Virus genome (UHGV): UHGV-0105325 | Reading direction: 5' to 3' (one strand) | DNA: 48,561 bases | DNA from: a virus | Made by a program: the position numbers and the translations under genes | Notes under the pieces: generated by a model | What the model was told of the DNA's origin: nothing | Database searches by the model: none | Seen by the model: only the letters and a program-made list of their open reading frames with translations | Part shown: in pieces, positions 1,867-42,228 of the stretch | Position numbering within the stretch: the stretch's first letter is position 1 | Layout of the letters: every line of letters starts with the position of its first letter

Positions 1867-3000
1867 ATGTTTCCAATTGAACAAATTATCCCCATTACAA
1901 CCCGGATTTCTCCGGCGGGATTAAGTACAGCAAACTTCGCTTCTGCGATGTTGTTTGCTAATAAGACCGAACTCCCGAGCGGCTTCACCAAAGACACGGT
2001 GCGTACCTACTATTCCACCTCGTCTCTCGCCGCTGACTTCGCTCCCACAACCGAGACGTACAAGGCTGGTGCCAAATTCCTTGGCTCCACTCCGGCGGTA
2101 CCGAAACTCACCGTGTGGGGTACCGCGGACGATGATACCGACATCAAAACAACGCTGGCTAAGGCGTTCAACAAACATTACTGGTACTGGACTCTTGTCA
2201 CCAAAGATGTACTGGCGACGGAGGCCGACGTACTGGCGATTGCATCGTGGTGTGAAGAGAACAGCGTCATGTTCCCTAACAGTCAGACCGGTGAAGCCGT
2301 GGTTAAAATTCGTAACCCGGACGCCGATGATGACATCTGTTCGAAGCTGAATAAACTGGGCTATCGTCACGCATTCACCGTGGCTCACGCAACCGACCCG
2401 TATGCGGCCTATGCGCTCATCAAGCATTCTGCCTCGGTGAATTACAGTGCCGATAACAGCACTATTGACACTGAGTTTAAGAAATCTCCGGGTGTTGCCG
2501 CCGAAGACCTGTCCGACACAGAACAGAACGCGATGGTCACCAAACGTTGCGCATTCTACAGCGTGCTTGACCTACAGGGGAGCACCGACAGCGGTCGCTG
2601 GCTGCAGACGTGGTCGCACAGTACCTACGGTGAGTCCATTTCCGACATCGTCGATTTGGACGCGTTTGTGAACTCTCTGCGTGTGGAACTGTACAATACC
2701 ATTGTCAACCAGACCACTAAACTCCCGCAGACTCCGGTTGGTCAGGAAGCGCTCATCGGTGCGGCCAAACGTGTGGGTAGACAATATATTCGCAACCGTT
2801 ATCTCGGCCCACGCAATTACATCAGTCCCGACACCGGTCTGGAAGCGTACACCGAGGGATTCGAAGTGCTGACTAAAGCGACGGATATTCTCGACCTGTC
2901 CGATTCTGACCGCGCGGCACGCAAGTCTGCACCGATTAACATGCGTGTGTTCAAAGCTGGTAGCGTCAGAATCTGTGACGTCATAGTTGACGTTTATTGA
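1867..3000 (+). CDS. tail sheath-like protein (DUF3383-type small sheath)
   Basis: 377 aa, immediately followed by a 138-aa tube-like gene. The order sheath-tube-chaperones-tape measure is typical of contractile tails. Assignment is by context and size, not by search. Confidence 0.5.
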   Translation: MFPIEQIIPITTRISPAGLSTANFASAMLFANKTELPSGFTKDTVRTYYSTSSLAADFAPTTETYKAGAKFLGSTPAVPKLTVWGTADDDTDIKTTLAKAFNKHYWYWTLVTKDVLATEADVLAIASWCEENSVMFPNSQTGEAVVKIRNPDADDDICSKLNKLGYRHAFTVAHATDPYAAYALIKHSASVNYSADNSTIDTEFKKSPGVAAEDLSDTEQNAMVTKRCAFYSVLDLQGSTDSGRWLQTWSHSTYGESISDIVDLDAFVNSLRVELYNTIVNQTTKLPQTPVGQEALIGAAKRVGRQYIRNRYLGPRNYISPDTGLEAYTEGFEVLTKATDILDLSDSDRAARKSAPINMRVFKAGSVRICDVIVDVY

Positions 3001-3013
3001 TGGAGGATGACAG

Positions 3014-3430
3014 ATGTCATTAGAAAATTTTTCCACAAGTAATATGGTGGTTACAATCGGGGGAAGAATTATAACGGACTGGGGTGAGTCTGACCCACCG
3101 TATACCGATGAGCCGATTGACGCGTCAACTGTGTTACGTCGTGGCCTGGGTGGTAATGCTATTCGTCTGGACCGTATCAACCCGGGTCGTCGTGTCACAC
3201 TGAACCTAAACCCTGGTTCGGCTGACTCCGCGTATATTAACGGACTGTTTCAGAGTAAGGCCAACATCGAGTTGACCTATACTCAAATCGGCACACTTGA
3301 CGCCGCTGTGGGCACAGAAGGTGTGATTGTGAATGATGGTCCGCGTGGGCGCGGTGGTCAGACAATTACCGATGACCAGTGGGTTTTCGAGTTCAATTCA
3401 TGGACTGCGACAAAGGGTCCAGCAAGCTAA
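3014..3430 (+). CDS. tail tube-like protein
   Basis: 138 aa, follows the sheath-like gene and precedes a terminator. Confidence 0.5.
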   Translation: MSLENFSTSNMVVTIGGRIITDWGESDPPYTDEPIDASTVLRRGLGGNAIRLDRINPGRRVTLNLNPGSADSAYINGLFQSKANIELTYTQIGTLDAAVGTEGVIVNDGPRGRGGQTITDDQWVFEFNSWTATKGPAS

Positions 3431-3431
3431 G

Positions 3432-3458
3432 TGAAAGGGGCCATCAGGCCCCTTTTCT
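3432..3458. terminator. rho-independent terminator hairpin (aggggccatcaggcccctttt), usable in both directions
   Basis: GC stem plus T-run between the convergent tube gene and the endonuclease gene. Confidence 0.7.
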
Positions 3459-4892
3459 CCACATGTATTTTTTAGTTCCCGAATTTTCCGTAATCAAACA
3501 ACCCGCCTCATCCATCATTTGACGTTGAGTCTTTTTCTTGGAAAATACCGACGGGTCAACCCCTAACTTACTTAGCGTTTTTGGGATGTTAATCTTCCAC
3601 CATTGTTGCCGACTCATGAAACCCACTTTCCGGTGCCATATTCTGAATGATGTGACCGAATCATCAACCAGTTCGAATCCTGAGTTTTCATAACTTGACC
3701 CGTCGAAATAGTCACAATCTACGAACGATTGGCACCATTGCATATTTAGAGCCGCGGCCGCGTGTTTGAACAGCTTGGACTGACCACCTCTGACCATACA
3801 ACTCGTGGCATAACGTACCATATCGAATCCACCCTCAGCAATTTGGTTAAATGTCATAACTGCGACGATTTGACCGGATTTATGGGTGAGTGCGAAATTA
3901 TGTGAGGCCCGAGCATAGCCCTGAACGTGATGTTCAATCAGGAACTTCCGGGCATCTTTGCCGGGGATATTCACAATCTTACAGTCGCGAGCGTTGACTC
4001 TCACATCTTCGGAGTGCCCCGTGGCGTTTTTTATGATTCGCGTAATGATTGGTTTTTTATCTTTCCAGTCTTGTTCTGATATTGATATCAATCTATACCC
4101 AACACTGTTAGTTCTGATACGTTTGTTTTTGTGATATCCCCTCGGTCGTTTCTGCAGGCTGTGCCAGTATGTGCCATTGAATTCTATTGCCACTTTTGAA
4201 GCGTGGTCCACTATGTCGAGTTCTTGAGGTGCGATTAGTGAGCGATTCGAAATGTCAACATCGCCGATTAGCGACTGTATTTCCACTTCGAAACTTGATG
4301 GTCCCACGTTCGCGCATTTGGGGCAACCCACCCCGTAAGCATGCTGAAACGCAATCGGTGTGAAGTCTCCGTGTTTTTCGCATGTAACTACAATTTTGTC
4401 GCCAGATTTGGTGTATGATGTTTTGTCATAGGTATATGGACTACCACTGTCTTTCATTTTTTGGACGAATGATTCCGTATCGTATTTCCCACCTTGTTTG
4501 CACTTGGGACAACCTTGCCCCGTGGTGCAGTGTGCAGATGGAGTCTGGTAGAAATCTCCATGAGTGGGACAGGTGATTCTCATCTTTGTACGGGTGTCAA
4601 CATATGTTTCGGGGTGGTACTCATATTTATTTCCGTGTTTCTCTTTGGCGCGGTCGAGCATTTCAGAAACAGACTTCCGTTTGTTCGTATTTTTAATTTT
4701 TTTTGCACATTCTGGGCAGTTGCTGCCATTAGTGTGGTCTGCTGCAATCTGTAAGAAATCCCCGTGAATGCGGCATTTTATCCGAACTGTGTTCGCCTTA
4801 CCCGTGTAAACTACCCCCGTGTAATCGTACCTGTCACCGTGTACAGATTTGGCCTTATTGACGTATTCTTCGGTTGTCAACTTTTTGGACAC
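3444..4892 (-). CDS. homing-endonuclease-like protein: 3 zinc-ribbon repeats (CxxHGxF...GCPxC) + C-terminal Vsr/PD-(D/E)XK-like nuclease domain
   Basis: GTG start with GGGAGGAG RBS. Three copies of the repeat unit at aa 7-64, 72-133 and 138-195. C-terminus AIEFNGTYWHS...RIRTNSVGYRLISISEQDW resembles the Vsr/DUF559 core. Family assignment is by resemblance. Confidence 0.6.
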   Translation of the reverse strand: MSKKLTTEEYVNKAKSVHGDRYDYTGVVYTGKANTVRIKCRIHGDFLQIAADHTNGSNCPECAKKIKNTNKRKSVSEMLDRAKEKHGNKYEYHPETYVDTRTKMRITCPTHGDFYQTPSAHCTTGQGCPKCKQGGKYDTESFVQKMKDSGSPYTYDKTSYTKSGDKIVVTCEKHGDFTPIAFQHAYGVGCPKCANVGPSSFEVEIQSLIGDVDISNRSLIAPQELDIVDHASKVAIEFNGTYWHSLQKRPRGYHKNKRIRTNSVGYRLISISEQDWKDKKPIITRIIKNATGHSEDVRVNARDCKIVNIPGKDARKFLIEHHVQGYARASHNFALTHKSGQIVAVMTFNQIAEGGFDMVRYATSCMVRGGQSKLFKHAAAALNMQWCQSFVDCDYFDGSSYENSGFELVDDSVTSFRIWHRKVGFMSRQQWWKINIPKTLSKLGVDPSVFSKKKTQRQMMDEAGCLITENSGTKKYMWRKGA

Positions 4893-4957
4893 GTTCTCCT
4901 CCCTCTCATGATGACCAACGTGTTTCGATTGAATAATACACGCGCTACATAGTCAAA
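3457..4957 (-). mobile_element. free-standing endonuclease gene cassette bounded by imperfect 43-bp direct repeats (3414-3456 and 4958-5000)
   Basis: The repeats aagggtcc(a/g)gcaag(c/t)taa(g/a)tgaaaggggcc(a/g)tcaggcccctt differ at 4 positions. The left copy is the 3' end of the tube gene plus its terminator. The cassette is AT-richer than its neighbours. Confidence 0.45.
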
Positions 4958-4977
4958 ACAAGGGTCCGGCAAGTTAA

Positions 4978-5002
4978 ATGAAAGGGGCCGTCAGGCCCCT
5001 TA
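4978..5002. terminator. hairpin aaaggggccgtcaggcccctt (duplicate of the tube-gene terminator)
   Basis: Near-identical to the 3432-3458 hairpin. Lies downstream of leftward gene 5004-5546. Confidence 0.5.
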
Positions 5003-5003
5003 G

Positions 5004-5546
5004 TTATTTCTGGTCAAGCATGTCGGACTGATAACGTTCGAGCTTGACGTATTCCTGCACAGACCATCCCATTGCTCTAAAGTCCGATGCCTCAGCAGCA
5101 TCAGTGGAGTAAGTGGTCCTTCTACCACCTGGAACTGAAATCCCGTACAGGTCGGCGACTGGCTTAATCTGCGCAACTGGTGTGGTACCCTCACGAATGA
5201 GGGTACCATCGACTTTACCCCGCAGCATGGCGGCTCGGCAGGATTCATCCTCGCCAAATATAGCCGCCTCCATTACATCAATAGCTTGCGATGGCGAGTG
5301 TGAATATTTATCGAAGGTTGGACCTTTGATGCGCTGTGCGATTTTGAACAGTCGTTTTTCTTGCGCGTGATACAAATCACTTAGTCGCTGATATCTCTCA
5401 TCGGGCTCACTACCCATCGTCGCCAGGAGCATCTCATACGCTTGAAGCGTGTACTCACCACTCATCGACAACTGACCTTGCTCATCTTTTATTTTGCACA
5501 GTCGGTCGATTTGTACAATCAGGTTTTCTTTTGTCACTCTTCTCAT
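5004..5546 (-). CDS. hypothetical protein
   Basis: 180-aa ORF with GGAGT RBS. Second gene of the leftward cassette driven from the promoter at 5850-5886. Confidence 0.6.
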   Translation of the reverse strand: MRRVTKENLIVQIDRLCKIKDEQGQLSMSGEYTLQAYEMLLATMGSEPDERYQRLSDLYHAQEKRLFKIAQRIKGPTFDKYSHSPSQAIDVMEAAIFGEDESCRAAMLRGKVDGTLIREGTTPVAQIKPVADLYGISVPGGRRTTYSTDAAEASDFRAMGWSVQEYVKLERYQSDMLDQK

Positions 5547-5827
5547 TTTCTTTTACTCCGAATGTGAAAGTCTGCCTTATCCATCATGTCTTTACGCCAG
5601 CAAACTCCGGTACCCATATATGCCGGGTCATCACTTTCCGCATAACCAAACTCGTTTTCATGATACGTGCAAATCGTGTCGGTCTGCCCGTCATAAATCC
5701 TGAATTGCTCACCCTGTGCAGCGTCGGTGCTGTTGCAGTAGATTGTTGCCGACAGTGCCGCAGCCATGATGACTGCCAACTGAATTTTAAATTTGCGCCA
5801 TGCTTTACGGTCTTGTTCACGAATCAT
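5543..5827 (-). CDS. small membrane/secreted protein
   Basis: Start placed at MIREQD (AGGAG RBS) downstream of the promoter. Has one hydrophobic segment LAVIMAAALSATIY. Overlaps the next gene by 4 nt. Confidence 0.5.
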   Translation of the reverse strand: MIREQDRKAWRKFKIQLAVIMAAALSATIYCNSTDAAQGEQFRIYDGQTDTICTYHENEFGYAESDDPAYMGTGVCWRKDMMDKADFHIRSKRK

Positions 5828-5849
5828 TTTGCATCTCCTGTTGTTGATA

Positions 5850-5886
5850 TGACTAACTCTACACCATCTTGACGTACCCGTCAACA
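5850..5886 (-). promoter_or_regulatory. early promoter with TGACG-N4-CGTCA palindrome (core 5870-5883); -35 TTGACG, 17-bp spacer, -10 TAGAGT
   Basis: Read on the minus strand: TTGACGggtacgtcaagatggtgTAGAGT, then the conserved leader ...atcaacaacaggag and ATG. Confidence 0.7.
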
Positions 5887-5944
5887 ATTGATTGATGATT
5901 TCGTCAAGTGTACACTGTAACGACTAACAACCGGAGAAATAACA

Positions 5945-6319
5945 ATGTCACTCATTAAAACTTTTACCGCTGGCGATATCACCGTGAACGCCGCGATGCC
6001 TTCCGCAATTGAGCAGGATGAACTGTTATCCCTGGTGAGCGCACAGTTTATTGCGCACGCTGCCAATGTTTACAAAAACGGCGGTGAACTCGGTGTCAAA
6101 GATGTAACACTGTTGCTTACCGCTGTACCCCATCATATCAAGCAACGCATTGCTGAGGTGCTCCTGAGCAAAGCGATGACAGCGGGTACCAACACGAAAA
6201 TCACAGTGAATGATTTCCCCGGTAAGATGATGACGCTGAATACTCTGCTGGCCGAATTGTTTCTGTGGGTTTACTCTGATTTTTTCGATTACGTGCAAAA
6301 CGCAAACAAAGACGAGTAA
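5945..6319 (+). CDS. hypothetical protein (possible tail assembly chaperone by position)
   Basis: 124-aa ORF between the tube gene and the tape-measure gene. Confidence 0.5.
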   Translation: MSLIKTFTAGDITVNAAMPSAIEQDELLSLVSAQFIAHAANVYKNGGELGVKDVTLLLTAVPHHIKQRIAEVLLSKAMTAGTNTKITVNDFPGKMMTLNTLLAELFLWVYSDFFDYVQNANKDE

Positions 6320-6505
6320 AAGACACCGGGCGACCCAGCCCGGTCAACTGGTACTTCATGCGGGTTTGCACAGGTATCGAGGGAGTGTGCCCACCTCTTT
6401 GTACATGGGCACAGTTAAAAGATGGTACAATATCGCTTGCTGAAGTCGAACAATTTCACTTTGCGATGGATGAATTGCAGGGTAAGTATATTGAGGCGAT
6501 AAACA

Positions 6506-8255: not shown

Positions 8256-9680
8256 ATGGATTTGCGCCAGTATGAAATACTCATTGACACAAAGAATTTC
8301 ATCACTCAGTCGTACCCGATGCTCCGGTGCTCGTTCGATGTAACGACGTATACCGGCGACAGCCTGAGTACCTGTGAATTCCGCTTGTGGAACCTTGCAC
8401 CGACAACGAAGATTGAACCGAATCAGACCGTTGTTTTTCGCGCCGGGTATCAGTCACGCATTGGTCAGATTTTTACCGGGTTTGTCACCAACGTTTTCAC
8501 CATTCGTGACGGTACTGACATCATCACCCGCGTGACATGTCGTAGCGGTAGCAACGTGCTCGACGGCGGGACAACGAGTGCAAGTTTTGGTAAGAGCGTG
8601 ACATTGTTTGACGTCTTGACCAGCCTCGCACAGGACTGGTCGAAACCGTTATATCTCGTCAATAGTGTGGACAAATTTACCTCTATTGTCATGGCTGGAG
8701 GCTATAATGTTAGCTCCGATATCAGTAAGGAACTTGACATTCTGGCCAAAGCATACGGTTTTGAATGGCATTTGTACGCCGGGCAGGTGTTCGTCGGATT
8801 CCCATCTGATGACCGTAAAGCCACGCCTGTCAAAATCAGTTCCGCAACCGGGATGATTGATGCGCCCACGCTTCACGGCGGCATTGATGGTGTATTCTGT
8901 GACGTTAAAATGCGTCTTGACCCCCGTATGACACCCGCATCGGTACTTAATATTGAATCGAAATGGCTTAAATTCGATTTCGGAGCAGTGGAGTTCCAGA
9001 CAACCGTCGACGCTAAACTGGAAGGTGACTGGAACGTTCAGACCATTCAGCATACTGGAGACACACATGGCCCTGACTGGTACACATTTGTCAAAGCTGT
9101 GCGCGCCGGGTCAATGGATACCACCACGACAAATAGTGATGTTGGTAATCGTCTTATTTACGGGCGTGTTGGCGTGCAGGGTGAGGATGCCAGTCAGCAG
9201 CAGGATTTCCGTACCGAGGTGCGTAAACTTGGACAAAGTCTGGGTATCAGTCCCAACTGGATTATGGCTGTAATATCTGCAGAGTCTAACTTCAATCCAC
9301 AGTCAAAGAACAGCAAATCCGGCGCGGTAGGACTGATTCAGTTTACTAACGCCGGGTGGACAAGTGCGTTTCAGACTAAATACGGACGCAATAAAAATGT
9401 CATCCTGTCAATGACTGCAGCTGAACAGGTAAGAGGTCCGATTACTGATTATTTTAATCAGTACAAAGGGCGTTACAAAACAATGGGTGACGTGTACATG
9501 GCTGTATTCAGTCCGGCATTCATCGGTAAACCTTCCACAACCGTGATGTACTCATCACCTTCTACAGCGTACAATCAGAACGCAGGGCTTGACACGGACC
9601 ATAAAGGTTACATTACTGTCGGCGACGTGTGGCGACGTGTTGAGGAACGATTCAGGCAAGGTAAGGCGTACATGTTATGA
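8256..9680 (+). CDS. tail/baseplate protein with C-terminal lytic transglycosylase (SLT) domain
   Basis: C-terminal motif AVISAESNFNPQSKNSKSGAVGLIQF matches the SLT catalytic-Glu/ES motif. Confidence 0.6.
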   Translation: MDLRQYEILIDTKNFITQSYPMLRCSFDVTTYTGDSLSTCEFRLWNLAPTTKIEPNQTVVFRAGYQSRIGQIFTGFVTNVFTIRDGTDIITRVTCRSGSNVLDGGTTSASFGKSVTLFDVLTSLAQDWSKPLYLVNSVDKFTSIVMAGGYNVSSDISKELDILAKAYGFEWHLYAGQVFVGFPSDDRKATPVKISSATGMIDAPTLHGGIDGVFCDVKMRLDPRMTPASVLNIESKWLKFDFGAVEFQTTVDAKLEGDWNVQTIQHTGDTHGPDWYTFVKAVRAGSMDTTTTNSDVGNRLIYGRVGVQGEDASQQQDFRTEVRKLGQSLGISPNWIMAVISAESNFNPQSKNSKSGAVGLIQFTNAGWTSAFQTKYGRNKNVILSMTAAEQVRGPITDYFNQYKGRYKTMGDVYMAVFSPAFIGKPSTTVMYSSPSTAYNQNAGLDTDHKGYITVGDVWRRVEERFRQGKAYML

Positions 9681-10327
9681 GTTTAATTAACCTTCTGGTA
9701 AAGCGCGGCCCACAGCTTGGGTCGCTTCAGTTCGATGCTGTCCTGTCTGATGACCTTGACGCCAGCGTGGACATTGTACAGTACCCTATTGAGACAGGTA
9801 CGCCAATTGCGGACCACATCATCTATCAACCTATTCGTTACACGATGACGGGTGCGGTATCGAACAATCCGCTGAAAGTTAGTATCACTGATTTCACCGG
9901 GGCGTTGACAAATCTCGTCGATGACAATCCGTTCATTGCCGCCGGTGCCGGTCTGTTCGCGGGGTGGTTAAGCGGCTCAAATGAAACTCGCTCCAGTACA
10001 ACACTGAACACTTTGCTTGATTTCATGTACTCCGGCCAGGTATTCACAGTGGATACGGGTGAAATCACGCTGAACAATATGGTCATTCAGCGCATCGGGC
10101 GCTCTAAAGACCCGGAGAATGAGAACGGACTGATATTTGTTGCTGAACTGCAACAGATTGTCACACTTGACCGCGTGGCGAATGGTTCACAACCGGCACA
10201 GTATCAGCTGAACAGTAACGACGTTTCCAGCACATCCATATCCGGACTGATTGAGCGTGGTTACATTAACGTGAAGACAGCCGCAACGAATGTTGCCAAT
10301 CAGGTTACGACACTTTTGGATTTGTAA
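9677..10327 (+). CDS. baseplate-associated protein
   Basis: 216-aa ORF coupled to the previous gene. Confidence 0.5.
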   Translation: MSLINLLVKRGPQLGSLQFDAVLSDDLDASVDIVQYPIETGTPIADHIIYQPIRYTMTGAVSNNPLKVSITDFTGALTNLVDDNPFIAAGAGLFAGWLSGSNETRSSTTLNTLLDFMYSGQVFTVDTGEITLNNMVIQRIGRSKDPENENGLIFVAELQQIVTLDRVANGSQPAQYQLNSNDVSSTSISGLIERGYINVKTAATNVANQVTTLLDL

Positions 10328-22849: not shown

Positions 22850-23974
22850 CTATTTTCGGGAAAACACATTTTTAATTGCACGTTCATCGACCTGTTCCAG
22901 CTTGACACCCGTGACGGGTGTTTCGGCGTACTGTTCAATAACGGACGGGTCGATACCTTTTTTCACACACTGTGCGGGTGTGTCCAGTTCCTGCGGCTTA
23001 CGCAAATTCTGACCGAGTAAATCCCCCATCATAATTACCTGGTCCACCGGAACATCTTTCTTCCAGCGCTTACGACCGTACGTGGTTTTAGCACTGTAGA
23101 ACGTCACGTGTTGCCCCTGCTTAATCTCGTGCAGCGCTTGTTCCTCCAGACCACTGAGGCGCATTTTAATCATCTCCTGCGCCCGTTGCAGGAGTCGCAA
23201 TTCAACACCCAGTGCATGACCGGACAGGTTGTGCGTCTGTAACGACTGTACGTAATCGATACCGACATAACTCTGTTGCTTCAGCGTGTCACAGTGTGCA
23301 CGCGCGCTACAATCGAGACAATGTGGTCCGGGTGTACACATCGGCGTGACATCCAGTACGCGGGACATCGTCTCGTTCACCTGCTGCCGGTATGCACACA
23401 ATTCATCATATGTGAGCGCCCATTTGCGCACCGTACCGTCACTGGTGAATCCGCGAGGCTGCACGATGACCAGTTCGATAATGTCCGGCGGTGTCTGGAA
23501 TTGTTCACAGATACTGAATGCTTCGATCAACAACTGCCAGTTTTCAAACGGGTCAACAATGCGATGACCGAATTTAGCATCCCAGACGCGTAACACCTTC
23601 CCTTCCGGTACATACACCCACGCATCGGGAATGCAGTACCAGTCGCCGTAACCCGGCACAGGACACGCTTCCTCAACGTGAAGGTCGTGCAGTCGCCCAT
23701 GCGTGTTACAGTAACCCCACACCTCGTTAAAATACTCACGGGCAGCGTCAAACAGTTCATCTGTTATGACAATTCCATCCTTTGACAAACTGCCCACCAG
23801 GTCACTGAATGACTCATTTTTAAATAACTTCTGAGCCACTTCGTGACATGCCCGGCCCTCAAGCCGGGATTGTGACGGTTCGACGTCCAGTGGCGGATAA
23901 GCCTGTTGCGCCCGGAATGACCCGTTACAGGTCATCCACTGATTCGCGTCGGATACTTTGGGTAAATTAGTCAT
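22850..23974 (-). CDS. RecB-family / Cas4-like PD-(D/E)XK exonuclease with C-terminal Cys cluster (DUF2800-like)
   Basis: Motifs VWDAKFG and QLLIEAF, plus C-terminal CTPGPHCLDCSARAHC. Start taken at the ATG coupled (ATGACTAA) to the upstream micro-ORF; the TTG at 24010 is an alternative. Confidence 0.6.
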   Translation of the reverse strand: MTNLPKVSDANQWMTCNGSFRAQQAYPPLDVEPSQSRLEGRACHEVAQKLFKNESFSDLVGSLSKDGIVITDELFDAAREYFNEVWGYCNTHGRLHDLHVEEACPVPGYGDWYCIPDAWVYVPEGKVLRVWDAKFGHRIVDPFENWQLLIEAFSICEQFQTPPDIIELVIVQPRGFTSDGTVRKWALTYDELCAYRQQVNETMSRVLDVTPMCTPGPHCLDCSARAHCDTLKQQSYVGIDYVQSLQTHNLSGHALGVELRLLQRAQEMIKMRLSGLEEQALHEIKQGQHVTFYSAKTTYGRKRWKKDVPVDQVIMMGDLLGQNLRKPQELDTPAQCVKKGIDPSVIEQYAETPVTGVKLEQVDERAIKNVFSRK

Positions 23975-24128
23975 AAATCCAACTCTCATCCACTGGGGTT
24001 CCATCTGCAAAACCTTTCGACCATATATACTTTTGACATTGTCCGAGTCGTCGAAATTTTTTGCCCAACGCGCACCATTTACCGTCGCTAGTCTTTACCG
24101 GGGATACTACTTCTCTATCGTCACCCAT
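23967..24128 (-). CDS. 53-aa small protein
   Basis: GGGGAG RBS. Its stop overlaps the nuclease ATG. Confidence 0.4.
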   Translation of the reverse strand: MGDDREVVSPVKTSDGKWCALGKKFRRLGQCQKYIWSKGFADGTPVDESWIYD

Positions 24129-41240: not shown

Positions 41241-41441
41241 TCACTCCTGCGGCGGCTCGGGTAATGGTTGCCAGTGGGTTACAAAGCCGCCATTTTCGCT
41301 TTCAACCCACCACCGGTCGCCATTCCACGAACAGTTCCATTGATAGTGTGATTTCCCCAGGTCATTTTGCTCTTCTACATAGCACCAGTAACGGCCGGCA
41401 TCGCCCGGCATCCGCTCACTACACTTAATCCAGTTTGCCAT
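41241..41441 (-). CDS. DUF551-like small protein
   Basis: Trp-rich; C-terminus HWQPLPEPP is typical of the DUF551 family. Confidence 0.5.
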   Translation of the reverse strand: MANWIKCSERMPGDAGRYWCYVEEQNDLGKSHYQWNCSWNGDRWWVESENGGFVTHWQPLPEPPQE

Positions 41442-42228
41442 ACAATGTCCCCACTCGTTTCAAATCTCGCTGTGCGTGACAGCTGTAATTACCATCGTCC
41501 CATTTTATACCTAAAACATTGAGCGAAAACTTCACAACGTCGTCCAATATGAACCACTCCGTACATCCGTCAAATCCCGAATAGTTGGTGGAATTTACCA
41601 CTGAATGTATCGAGTGCAACGTTTTCTCCAACAATTGTACGAACGCTCCTTCCGCGTTAAGTGTGCCAACCACATCGAAACCGAAGGGTGTTTCACGCCT
41701 TAAAACCGTCAGTCGGTCTTCAAAATTATTCGAGATACCTATCTTTATTGCATTTTCGTCAAACCGTTTCAGAATGTATAGTGTACCCGGTATGGTGCTA
41801 TCGAACCCCTTCCTAGCACATCCCGGACACCTCCTACCCATCATGAATTTGTTGTAGTTTGTGGTTTTCCATTCACCATGTAACGCGCATTTGAGGTGTA
41901 GATAGGTTCTACAACCACGCCACTGTTCCAATTTGACCAATGATGTTAAAGATTTTTCACTTTTAAGAATTCCCTTAACGTTCGAAATAACCTCATCCTG
42001 CGTTAAACGTTTAGTGCTGGAACAGGCGGGACATGTCCGACCATCGTTGATGAACTTGTTGTATGTAGTGCTAAGCCATTCACCGTGTAAATCGCAATTC
42101 ATTTTCAACTTTGTGGATACTCCGCGCCATTCCCCAACAAATCCAACGAACTTGTAAGGTGTTCCCACTGTTCTTTCTCTTAGTTTCTCAATGGCATCCT
42201 TTTCTGGTATTGGAAGTGCCATAATCAC
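41425..42228 (-). CDS. homing-endonuclease-like protein: 2 zinc-ribbon repeats + T5orf172 (GIY-YIG-like) domain
   Basis: Repeat units C.LHGEW...CPxC twice. C-terminal GTLYILKRFDENAIKIGISNNFEDRL matches the T5orf172 core. Confidence 0.6.
   Translation of the reverse strand: MIMALPIPEKDAIEKLRERTVGTPYKFVGFVGEWRGVSTKLKMNCDLHGEWLSTTYNKFINDGRTCPACSSTKRLTQDEVISNVKGILKSEKSLTSLVKLEQWRGCRTYLHLKCALHGEWKTTNYNKFMMGRRCPGCARKGFDSTIPGTLYILKRFDENAIKIGISNNFEDRLTVLRRETPFGFDVVGTLNAEGAFVQLLEKTLHSIHSVVNSTNYSGFDGCTEWFILDDVVKFSLNVLGIKWDDGNYSCHAQRDLKRVGTLYGKLD

Follow-up and report, generated by a model that had tools for sequence, protein, structure and literature searches.

A putative free-standing homing endonuclease gene enclosed by two copies of a tail tube 3' end and its predicted terminator hairpin in Klebsiella Jedunavirus genomes

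The free-standing nuclease genes of T4-like phages (segA-G, mobA-E, hef and segH) are located between other genes and have their own expression signals. They are present in some close relatives and absent from others, they spread in a manner discordant with their flanks, and their self-protection does not come from a target split by an intron. A cassette with a predicted endonuclease gene is located between the tail tube and tail assembly chaperone genes of the virus genome UHGV-0105325, the whole 48,561-nucleotide (nt) stretch of which is referred to here as the window. Like the T4-like genes, this cassette is intergenic, has its own expression signals, is present or absent among relatives and is discordant with its flanks, and its self-protection would likewise not come from an intron. 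It differs from them in being bounded by a conserved 42-nt duplication, which consists of the 3' end of the upstream gene and a putative terminator, in having the endonuclease stop codon in the terminator loop, in running antisense to the structural operon, and in that no target or co-conversion gradient is visible beyond ~70 nt.

Two other described systems are close to this locus. I-Bth0305I defines the Vsr-like 'EDxHD' family of homing endonucleases, which has been extended to the phage Hef-type enzymes, noted as divergent members (PMC3239194). In ICP1 and other phages, nuclease genes are found at the boundaries of genetic exchange (Barth, Dunham & Seed, bioRxiv 2023, PMC10055350); those endonucleases carry DUF723/DUF4379 or CapR repeats, and recombination between the modules gives rise to internal duplications. 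Like the ICP1 genes, the window gene sits where the similarity between related phages breaks. Its nuclease, however, is Vsr-like rather than of the T5orf172/GIY-YIG or HNH type, and the exchange boundaries coincide with the two copies of a duplicated terminator; a search of the text of PMC10055350 for 'direct repeat' and 'terminator' finds neither term. The locus fits a kind already known, that of nuclease genes at exchange boundaries, although a duplicated terminator on either side of such a gene is unusual. A further parallel is provided by prophages in tRNA genes, in that the insert may be read as a unit of tube 3' end, terminator and endonuclease that restores its target gene, but no integrase or att-type recombination is involved here and movement would be by homologous repair.

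The anatomy of the locus, its distribution, the shared junctions, the allele patterns, purifying selection and the homology of the nuclease together point to an ordinary free-standing homing endonuclease cassette, and this is quite probably what it is: its repeats would derive from one ancestral duplication, and it would have spread by homing or homologous recombination. The cassette and its boundaries consist of the following features.

3014-3430, plus strand: tail tube gene, 138 amino acids (aa); PHROG 280 virion structural protein, annotated as tail tube in SBP and KpVB3
3413-3454: T1, repeat copy 1; tube 3' end and hairpin, stem 3434-3442/3447-3455, loop ATCA
3444-4892, minus strand: endonuclease gene, 482 aa, GTG start; matches to Pfam, PHROG 559/3339 and PDB 3r3p
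4893-4959, minus strand: endonuclease upstream region, 67 nt; ribosome-binding site (RBS) GGAGGAG at ~4896-4905 and promoter-like TTGACT-17-TTCAAT at 4956-4928
4960-5001: T2, repeat copy 2; non-coding relic of the tube 3' end and intact hairpin at 4982-5001, loop GTCA

A repeat search finds a single 42-nt direct-repeat family here, 3413-3454 against 4960-5001, with 38 of 42 positions identical (90%) and a spacing of 1547 nt. The duplication of tube end and hairpin around the endonuclease open reading frame (ORF), the central claim of the original prediction, is thereby confirmed, with the repeat ends lying 1-2 nt away from the 3414-3456 and 4958-5000 first given and with five tube codons and the stop codon, not seven codons, inside the repeat. 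The repeats do bracket the leftward ORF, whose stop codon is in the T1 loop. Each copy contains the equivalent of the last five tube codons and stop (AAG GGT CCA GCA AGC TAA at 3413-3430 in T1), three spacer nt and the hairpin, which in copy 1 is AAAGGGGCC-ATCA-GGCCCCTT(T). T1 and T2 differ at 3421, 3427, 3431 and 3443, that is, at the third position of two tube codons (both changes are synonymous), at one spacer position and at the first base of the loop; the stem has no substitution. The pattern AGGGGCC-N3-6-GGCCCCT has two sites in 48.5 kb, T1 and T2, with none expected from 100 shuffles, so that the repeat is not due to chance. The idea that this hairpin is a general terminator used throughout the genome was rejected, as it is present solely at these two places.

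The T1 hairpin has a folding energy of -16.6 kcal/mol (centroid), and the T2 hairpin, with eight perfect pairs, one of -15.4 to -17.7 kcal/mol. Both stems are perfect, with energies of about -15 to -18 kcal/mol and z-scores of -2.5 to -3.9, and the U-run after each is a short or interrupted one (UUUUCUCC, UUUCAUUU). The hairpins have been marked as terminators by the annotators of KpV79, KpV52 and Geezett and are taken as putative terminators here. In locus L020 (3103-3144) the stem has a compensatory double change, GGGACC...GGTCCC, and in T2 of phage FZ14 a single change leads to a G-U pair; both cases fit selection that acts on the structure of the hairpin.

The two copies appear to have different roles. 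The TGA stop codon of the endonuclease is the complement of T1 loop bases 3444-3446, and the right arm of T1 encodes the terminal K-G-A of the protein. T1 is nearly uniform among the 13 genomes that carry the cassette: its loop reads ATCA or ATTA in every one of them, so that the minus strand retains a TGA or TAA stop. T2, unlike T1, has a loop that varies freely, as do the single copies of other phages (GTCA, ATCG, CGAT, AATT, AATC, GATT and TGAT). T2, which adjoins the 3' end of the leftward accessory genes, had been described as a degenerate second hairpin; its stem is in fact intact, and the copy is identical at 42 of 42 positions to the single copy in phage LPKP33. Nor is its service to the leftward genes an acquired one. 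Cassette-free phages have one hairpin between the convergent tube and leftward genes, and since a hairpin is already present at this point of convergence, it is T2 that keeps the old role and T1 that has a new one, providing the last three codons and the stop of the endonuclease.

The endonuclease gene is intergenic, antisense to the rightward tail genes and outside any intron or intein; positions 2900-6400 have no Rfam match, to an intron or other known RNA, at E<=1. Its protein begins with three DUF723/DUF4379-type zinc-ribbon modules (residues ~1-195, from Pfam and the family alignment), which are followed by a Vsr-like core (~200-290) and, at the C-terminus, by a conserved domain (~295-480) whose role is unknown. 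Besides the DUF723/DUF4379 treble-clef zinc ribbons, Pfam gives a weak match to REase_MTES_1575; PHROG 559/3339 ('HNH endonuclease', 'homing endonuclease') match with E-values of 1e-110 and 1e-56, and an NCBIfam search gives no matches. Residues 223-286 match the catalytic domain of I-Bth0305I (PDB 3r3p) at E 3e-4 with phmmer and 5e-5 with the family profile. Five residues, D226, E237, N239, H244 and H254, do not vary across the family alignment. Of these, D226, N239 and H244 align at or near D196, N208 and H213 of I-Bth0305I as the counterparts of its catalytic Asp, Asn208 and His213. The protein is predicted from this homology to be a Vsr-like free-standing homing endonuclease of the I-Bth0305I/Hef type, with putative nuclease activity. 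It has distinctive features with respect to I-Bth0305I, which is intron-encoded: zinc ribbons take the place of NUMOD and helix-turn-helix elements (no NUMOD match is found in the protein, whose N-terminus consists of the three zinc-ribbon repeats), the nuclease domain is central, with an extra conserved domain of ~190 aa after it, and the last Asp of the motif, D222, aligns to the invariant H254.

Homologues are found by tblastn in 941 phage records, many of them named homing endonuclease, and the full-length homologues that were inspected lie among structural genes and bear that name in RefSeq. A literature search on Jedunavirus homing endonucleases returned nothing relevant. Each of the 13 ORFs is an intact reading frame of 482 codons; the ratio of nonsynonymous to synonymous divergence (dN/dS) is 0.05-0.10 and dS is up to 0.6, which indicates that the protein has been functional for a long time. 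The base composition is only mildly AT-rich: the endonuclease ORF has a G+C content of ~45-46%, compared with 50-55% for the sheath and tube genes. The window gene starts with GTG, while ATG is found at the same codon in 12 of 12 orthologues, and the window phage may therefore translate its endonuclease at a lower level. Every locus with the cassette has conserved the 67-nt upstream region, which no other locus contains, and a promoter is annotated in KpV79 at the position homologous to 4928-4956.

Matches to the region, at 88-96% identity, come from 71 phage records, of which nearly all are Klebsiella Jedunavirus of the KpV79/JD001 type, and the window phage is assigned on this similarity to Klebsiella Jedunavirus. 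For the comparison, 13 annotated stretches of 12 phages were taken from GenBank and 58 loci were retrieved from IMG/VR through the tube protein, and repeat copies were counted in ~60 GenBank records and 24 IMG/VR loci. All 13 distinct cassette-bearing genomes (the window, KpV79, BUCT791, Geezett, HF1013, PCCM_KpPS2, RCIP0033, FZ14, L015, L018, L023, L024 and L025) have two copies of the 42-mer, whereas ~45 GenBank records and 19 IMG/VR loci lack the gene at this locus; it is carried by ~15-20% of known Jedunaviruses. Cassette-free Jedunaviruses have exactly one copy, followed immediately by the stop codon of the leftward gene, and a BLAST search with the tube end and terminator gives two places in endonuclease-bearing records only. 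The case that the original prediction named as its refutation, the duplicated segment without an endonuclease gene, is seen in no genome across the surveyed GenBank and IMG/VR genomes. Its placing of the cassette between the tube and chaperone genes, with relatives that lack the gene having a single tube end and terminator, agrees with these counts. The adjacency of tube and chaperone genes, which it proposed to look for in relatives, is found in distant ones (tube protein 61-73% identical), where the gap is 6-13 nt, but not in cassette-free Jedunaviruses, in which the terminator and a leftward block intervene. The adjacency in distant relatives implies that the antisense block is an addition of the Jedunavirus lineage, inside which the endonuclease gene was added later.

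The junctions between repeat and insert are common to the carriers. On the left, the sequence is ...CCCCTT|TTCTCCACATG (equivalently written ...GGCCCCTT|TTCTCCACATG) in all of them. On the right, it is ...CAAAAC|AAGGGTCC in all but L025, with minor variants such as CGAAAC; the upstream region of L025 is 4 nt longer. Identical inner junctions in all carriers imply that the duplication was made once and inherited, and a duplication inherited from one event is no argument against homing, even though direct repeats had been put forward as not the usual outcome of that process. The proposal of insertion by illegitimate recombination with target duplication may hold for the origin, which was probably a single illegitimate event, but not for each insertion, since the junctions are shared. 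No flanking direct repeats are found around the homologous genes in SB28, OP1 and BUCT_47333, nor around a second endonuclease gene in FZ14, and the duplication is thus a one-off event and not a property of the family.

Within one genome, T1 and T2 differ at 3-8 positions, and T2 is in every case an ordinary allele of the pool seen in the single-copy phages. LPKP33 is an exact empty site for the window (tube gene, single terminator, 180-aa gene), and the 400 nt that follow its terminator, whose match to T2 is given above, are 99.75% identical. In the same way, T2 of L018 is identical to the terminator of L034, L011 and L016, and its right flank is 99% identical. Since T2 matches the resident alleles, the four substitutions in the window reflect allelic differences brought together by recombination and not decay. 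In IME346 and JYSS3, the single copy is identical to T1 alleles linked to the nuclease. Remnants of cassette ends, as imprecise loss would leave, are seen in no cassette-free locus examined. Precise loss of the cassette by T1-T2 recombination, which had been suggested as something that the structure may allow, is plausible from these clean empty sites and T1-type single copies.

The endonuclease alleles form groups that do not follow those of their neighbours. Group A (the window, KpV79, BUCT791, L015, L023 and L024) is 96-99.7% identical in nucleotide sequence, group B consists of Geezett, HF1013 and PCCM_KpPS2, and group C consists of RCIP0033, L018 and FZ14, which are 99.8-99.9% identical; L025 has an allele of its own, and identity between groups is 88-92%. 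The tube genes of group A, however, are just 86-96% identical. Between the window and L023, for example, the endonuclease genes are 98.3% identical and the tube genes 86.1%, while in group C the FZ14 endonuclease is 99.8-99.9% identical to those of RCIP0033 and L018 and the tube gene 91%. Group A is also heterogeneous in T2 and in the right-hand genes (the 180-aa gene, Ant genes and others). In a site-by-site comparison, the window, BUCT791, L023 and L024 become identical only from ~3385, ~30 nt to the left of T1, and on the right the linkage stops at the left edge of T2. These limits define a moving unit of ~3385-4959, which consists of T1, the gene and its upstream region. A broad co-conversion tract was considered and rejected, as it is only over the final ~100 nt ahead of the insert that identity between carriers exceeds that between carriers and non-carriers.

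In the mechanism proposed here, the cassette occupies the place at which the rightward tube gene meets the hypervariable leftward block, the two converging on one hairpin terminator (T). When the gene first entered an ancestor of the Jedunaviruses, one illegitimate event would have doubled the 42 nt that include five codons, the stop and T, and all present carriers would have inherited the order T1, endonuclease, promoter, T2. To judge from their position and sequence, both copies would have been retained because both are used. T1 would complete the tube gene, sit at the 3' ends of both the tube and endonuclease genes and give the latter its last three codons and stop, while T2 would keep the original position of T after the leftward genes and separate the endonuclease as a transcription unit of its own. 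Transfer between co-infecting Jedunaviruses would take place by homologous repair or recombination, probably triggered by a break that the enzyme makes, with the tube gene and T1 as the left homology arm and T2 and the following sequence as the right arm. With these arms, T1 would travel with the gene, while T2 and the right-hand genes would be those of the recipient. The four differences between T1 and T2 in the window would then come from recombination with an LPKP33-like phage.

Several observations weigh against this explanation. The homology to the solved homing endonuclease is weak, and the HMMER alignment places His (H254) at the last Asp of EDxHD. The terminator and promoter calls come from consensus matches and the labels of other annotators, and a terminator consensus scan flags T2 alone, on the plus strand. 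Breakpoints near the tube 3' end are also found between cassette-free phages, for example L016 and L034, and the tube/T boundary may be recombinogenic without the enzyme. When a linked marker is defined as a base present in >=80% of carriers and <=25% of non-carriers, no endonuclease-linked column is found in ~1.1 kb to the left (the tube gene and the 700 nt upstream of it), apart from the T1 loop and junction, and no such polymorphism is found in 2.7 kb from the chaperone gene rightward. Moreover, every sub-sequence of the empty site of up to 42 nt persists in carriers, on the left at T1 and on the right at T2, so that a conventional 14-40-bp target across the insertion point is not destroyed by the insert. 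Such data single out no cleavage site; the options are a target elsewhere, a recognition region longer than 42 bp that is split by the duplication, or ordinary recombination at a recombinogenic boundary.

The last of these options would mean that there is no homing at present: the cassette would be a module in a recombination hot spot, shuffled at the conserved T, and its nuclease would be kept for another benefit, such as cutting the DNA of competing phages or of the host, or a domesticated DNA-binding role. This is rather unlikely, although the purifying selection, strong and long-lasting to judge from dN/dS and dS, is more than expected of a purely selfish gene that passes through gain, decay and loss, the right-hand block is mosaic and the tube 3' breakpoints recur in cassette-free phages too, the empty-site sequence is intact in carriers, and the modest share of Jedunaviruses with the gene speaks against a sweep. 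The presence of alleles that are 98-99.9% identical beside tube genes that differ by 6-14% indicates recent spread of the 1.5-kb unit alone, and the protein belongs to the classic type of phage homing endonuclease, a family encoded in structural-gene clusters. Such a reading departs from that of a homing cassette solely in what starts the recombination. The second option makes the duplication a working part. The palindromic T (AAAGGGGCC-N4-GGCCCCTTT) would be the core of a target whose contacts extend beyond both edges of the 42-mer, the duplication would split this long site and confer immunity, and T2 would be a portable right homology arm for unrelated flanks. I-Bth0305I, a homodimer, recognises a core of 14 bp that is pseudo-palindromic, contacts up to 60 bp and cuts beside its insertion site (PMC3239194). 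A palindromic T would suit a homodimeric Vsr-like nuclease, and the enzyme has three tandem DNA-binding modules; the conversion tracts, ~70 nt on the left including T1 and ~0 on the right, would place the break at or in T, in every case T2 is a full allele of the resident type, and no immunity polymorphism is found elsewhere in the scanned flanks. The specificity of I-Bth0305I, however, is in the central 14 bp with little distally (PMC3239194), so that T1 and T2 would both be cut. The flanks of T are also unrelated to one another in sequence, a poor fit to a homodimer that needs both, and the homologues in SB28, OP1 and BUCT_47333 do without repeats. Such a role for the duplication is unlikely.

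A slightly bolder form is more doubtful still: the duplicated terminator would be a functional part of the mobile element, with T cut, carriers immune and T2 as homology arm, and the hairpin and a 'YxWxKGA' tail would form a mobile 3' module shared with the GIY-YIG/T5orf172-type endonuclease gene that FZ14, L011, L013 and L061 have between sheath and tube. If this were true, a homing gene could invade genomes with a wholly different downstream flank, bypassing the need for two-sided homology. By far the least probable account is a fresh target-site duplication at each insertion, by a transposition-like or staggered-cut process. Direct repeats do flank the insert immediately, but 13 carriers have the same junctions, the copies differ by 3-8 nt with T2 matching alleles of other phages, other members of the family lack flanking repeats, and the repeat and Pfam searches find no transposase or terminal inverted repeats at the cassette. 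Known target duplications are far shorter than 42 nt.

The genes on either side of the cassette are the following.

1867-3000, plus strand: sheath gene, from the ORF list
5004-5546, minus strand: leftward accessory gene, 180 aa, function unknown, from the ORF list; part of the resident variable block, outside the cassette
5543-5827, minus strand: leftward accessory gene, 94 aa, PHROG 31975; part of the resident variable block
5884-5856, minus strand: promoter-like site of the leftward block, TTGACG-17-TAGAGT, a consensus match of a kind not more numerous than shuffled sequence leads one to expect
5945-6319, plus strand: tail assembly chaperone gene, so annotated in ZCEC13, SBP and BUCT791, where rightward tail transcription resumes

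The leftward promoter-like site and two small genes, which had been counted with the endonuclease as one antisense block, are present but belong to a resident accessory block and not to the cassette. This block is hypervariable and is found in all Jedunaviruses; the 180-aa gene (99% identical in aa) directly follows the single terminator in LPKP33, and the 94-aa gene occurs in phages with and without the cassette. The leftward genes at T (5004-5546 in the window, and those of L001, L003 and L005-L010) are mosaics with unrelated middles, DUF551-like, Ant and others, and what they share are their initial 48-111 residues and a few codons at the end (...QK*, AGTTATTTCTGG beside T). Between its 180-aa and 94-aa genes, LPKP33 carries an additional gene of 471 nt that is missing from the window; the IME346 homologue of this gene is annotated as 'peptidase HslV family'. 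The chaperone gene has two allelic types, ~73% and 96-100% identical in aa to that of the window, and this split is independent of the presence of the endonuclease. Sheath length (1134 or 1137 nt) co-varies with the cassette in the first 11 annotated genomes; this was rejected as a coincidence of sampling, as 377-codon sheaths are found without the cassette in the IMG/VR loci L012, L014, L016 and L017.

Other endonuclease genes are present in these genomes. FZ14 (L071 2542-3429), L011, L013 and L061 (~9060-9990) have a second one between the sheath and tube genes, with three zinc ribbons and a T5orf172/GIY-YIG-type nuclease, where the window has a 13-nt spacer instead. Its 3' end, '...YRWLKGAK*', is in a hairpin with the T stem (AAGGGGCC/GGCCCCTT), with the stop in the loop, and ~40 nt can be aligned with T1 and the 3' end of the window endonuclease in spite of the different nuclease domain. 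Since the window spacer has no hairpin, this hairpin arrived with the sheath-tube gene, and the endonuclease genes at the two sites have probably exchanged 3' ends. FZ14 also has a 388-nt tandem partial duplication of the endonuclease 5' end (L071 5345-5371 and L072 1-430, across the record start), which includes the RBS and part of the upstream region and is annotated as 'restriction enzyme'; it probably arose from unequal recombination between zinc-ribbon repeats, as for ICP1 (PMC10055350).

In many Jedunaviruses, including BUCT_47333 (L075 1501-2898), L011, L012, L021, L030 and L034, the major head protein gene is directly followed by a third paralogue, 35-39% identical and with the same architecture and a Vsr-like core. 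An endonuclease VII gene comes after this paralogue, which is missing from the window. In the window, a second homing-endonuclease-like gene at 41425-42228 (minus strand, 267 aa) has a CapR/DUF723 zinc ribbon and a T5orf172/MUG113 (GIY-YIG-like) domain. A gene at 22850-24010 (minus strand) encodes a DUF2800/PD-(D/E)XK (Cas4/RecB-like) nuclease, a candidate recombination exonuclease that could be relevant to repeat-mediated gain and loss of the cassette. Unrelated plus-strand ORFs resembling zinc-ribbon endonucleases are found between the tube and chaperone genes of L039 (1653-2078) and L047 (1130-1717), whose tube proteins are ~71-72% identical to that of the window, and the tube/chaperone junction has thus been invaded independently more than once.

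For the annotation of these genomes, the labels 'endonuclease' and 'restriction enzyme' refer to one mobile gene and its fragment, and the second hairpin with its tube-gene fragment is not degenerate junk. The locus is a clean natural case of a predicted free-standing homing endonuclease gene placed exactly on an exchange boundary, in Klebsiella phages that are therapeutic candidates. It offers an exact empty site in LPKP33, several allele groups, and sharp breaks of linkage at the two terminator copies. This makes it a convenient system for asking whether a duplicated short sequence serves as a homology arm or an immunity device, how small a co-conversion tract can be, and why a 'selfish' nuclease stays under strong purifying selection.

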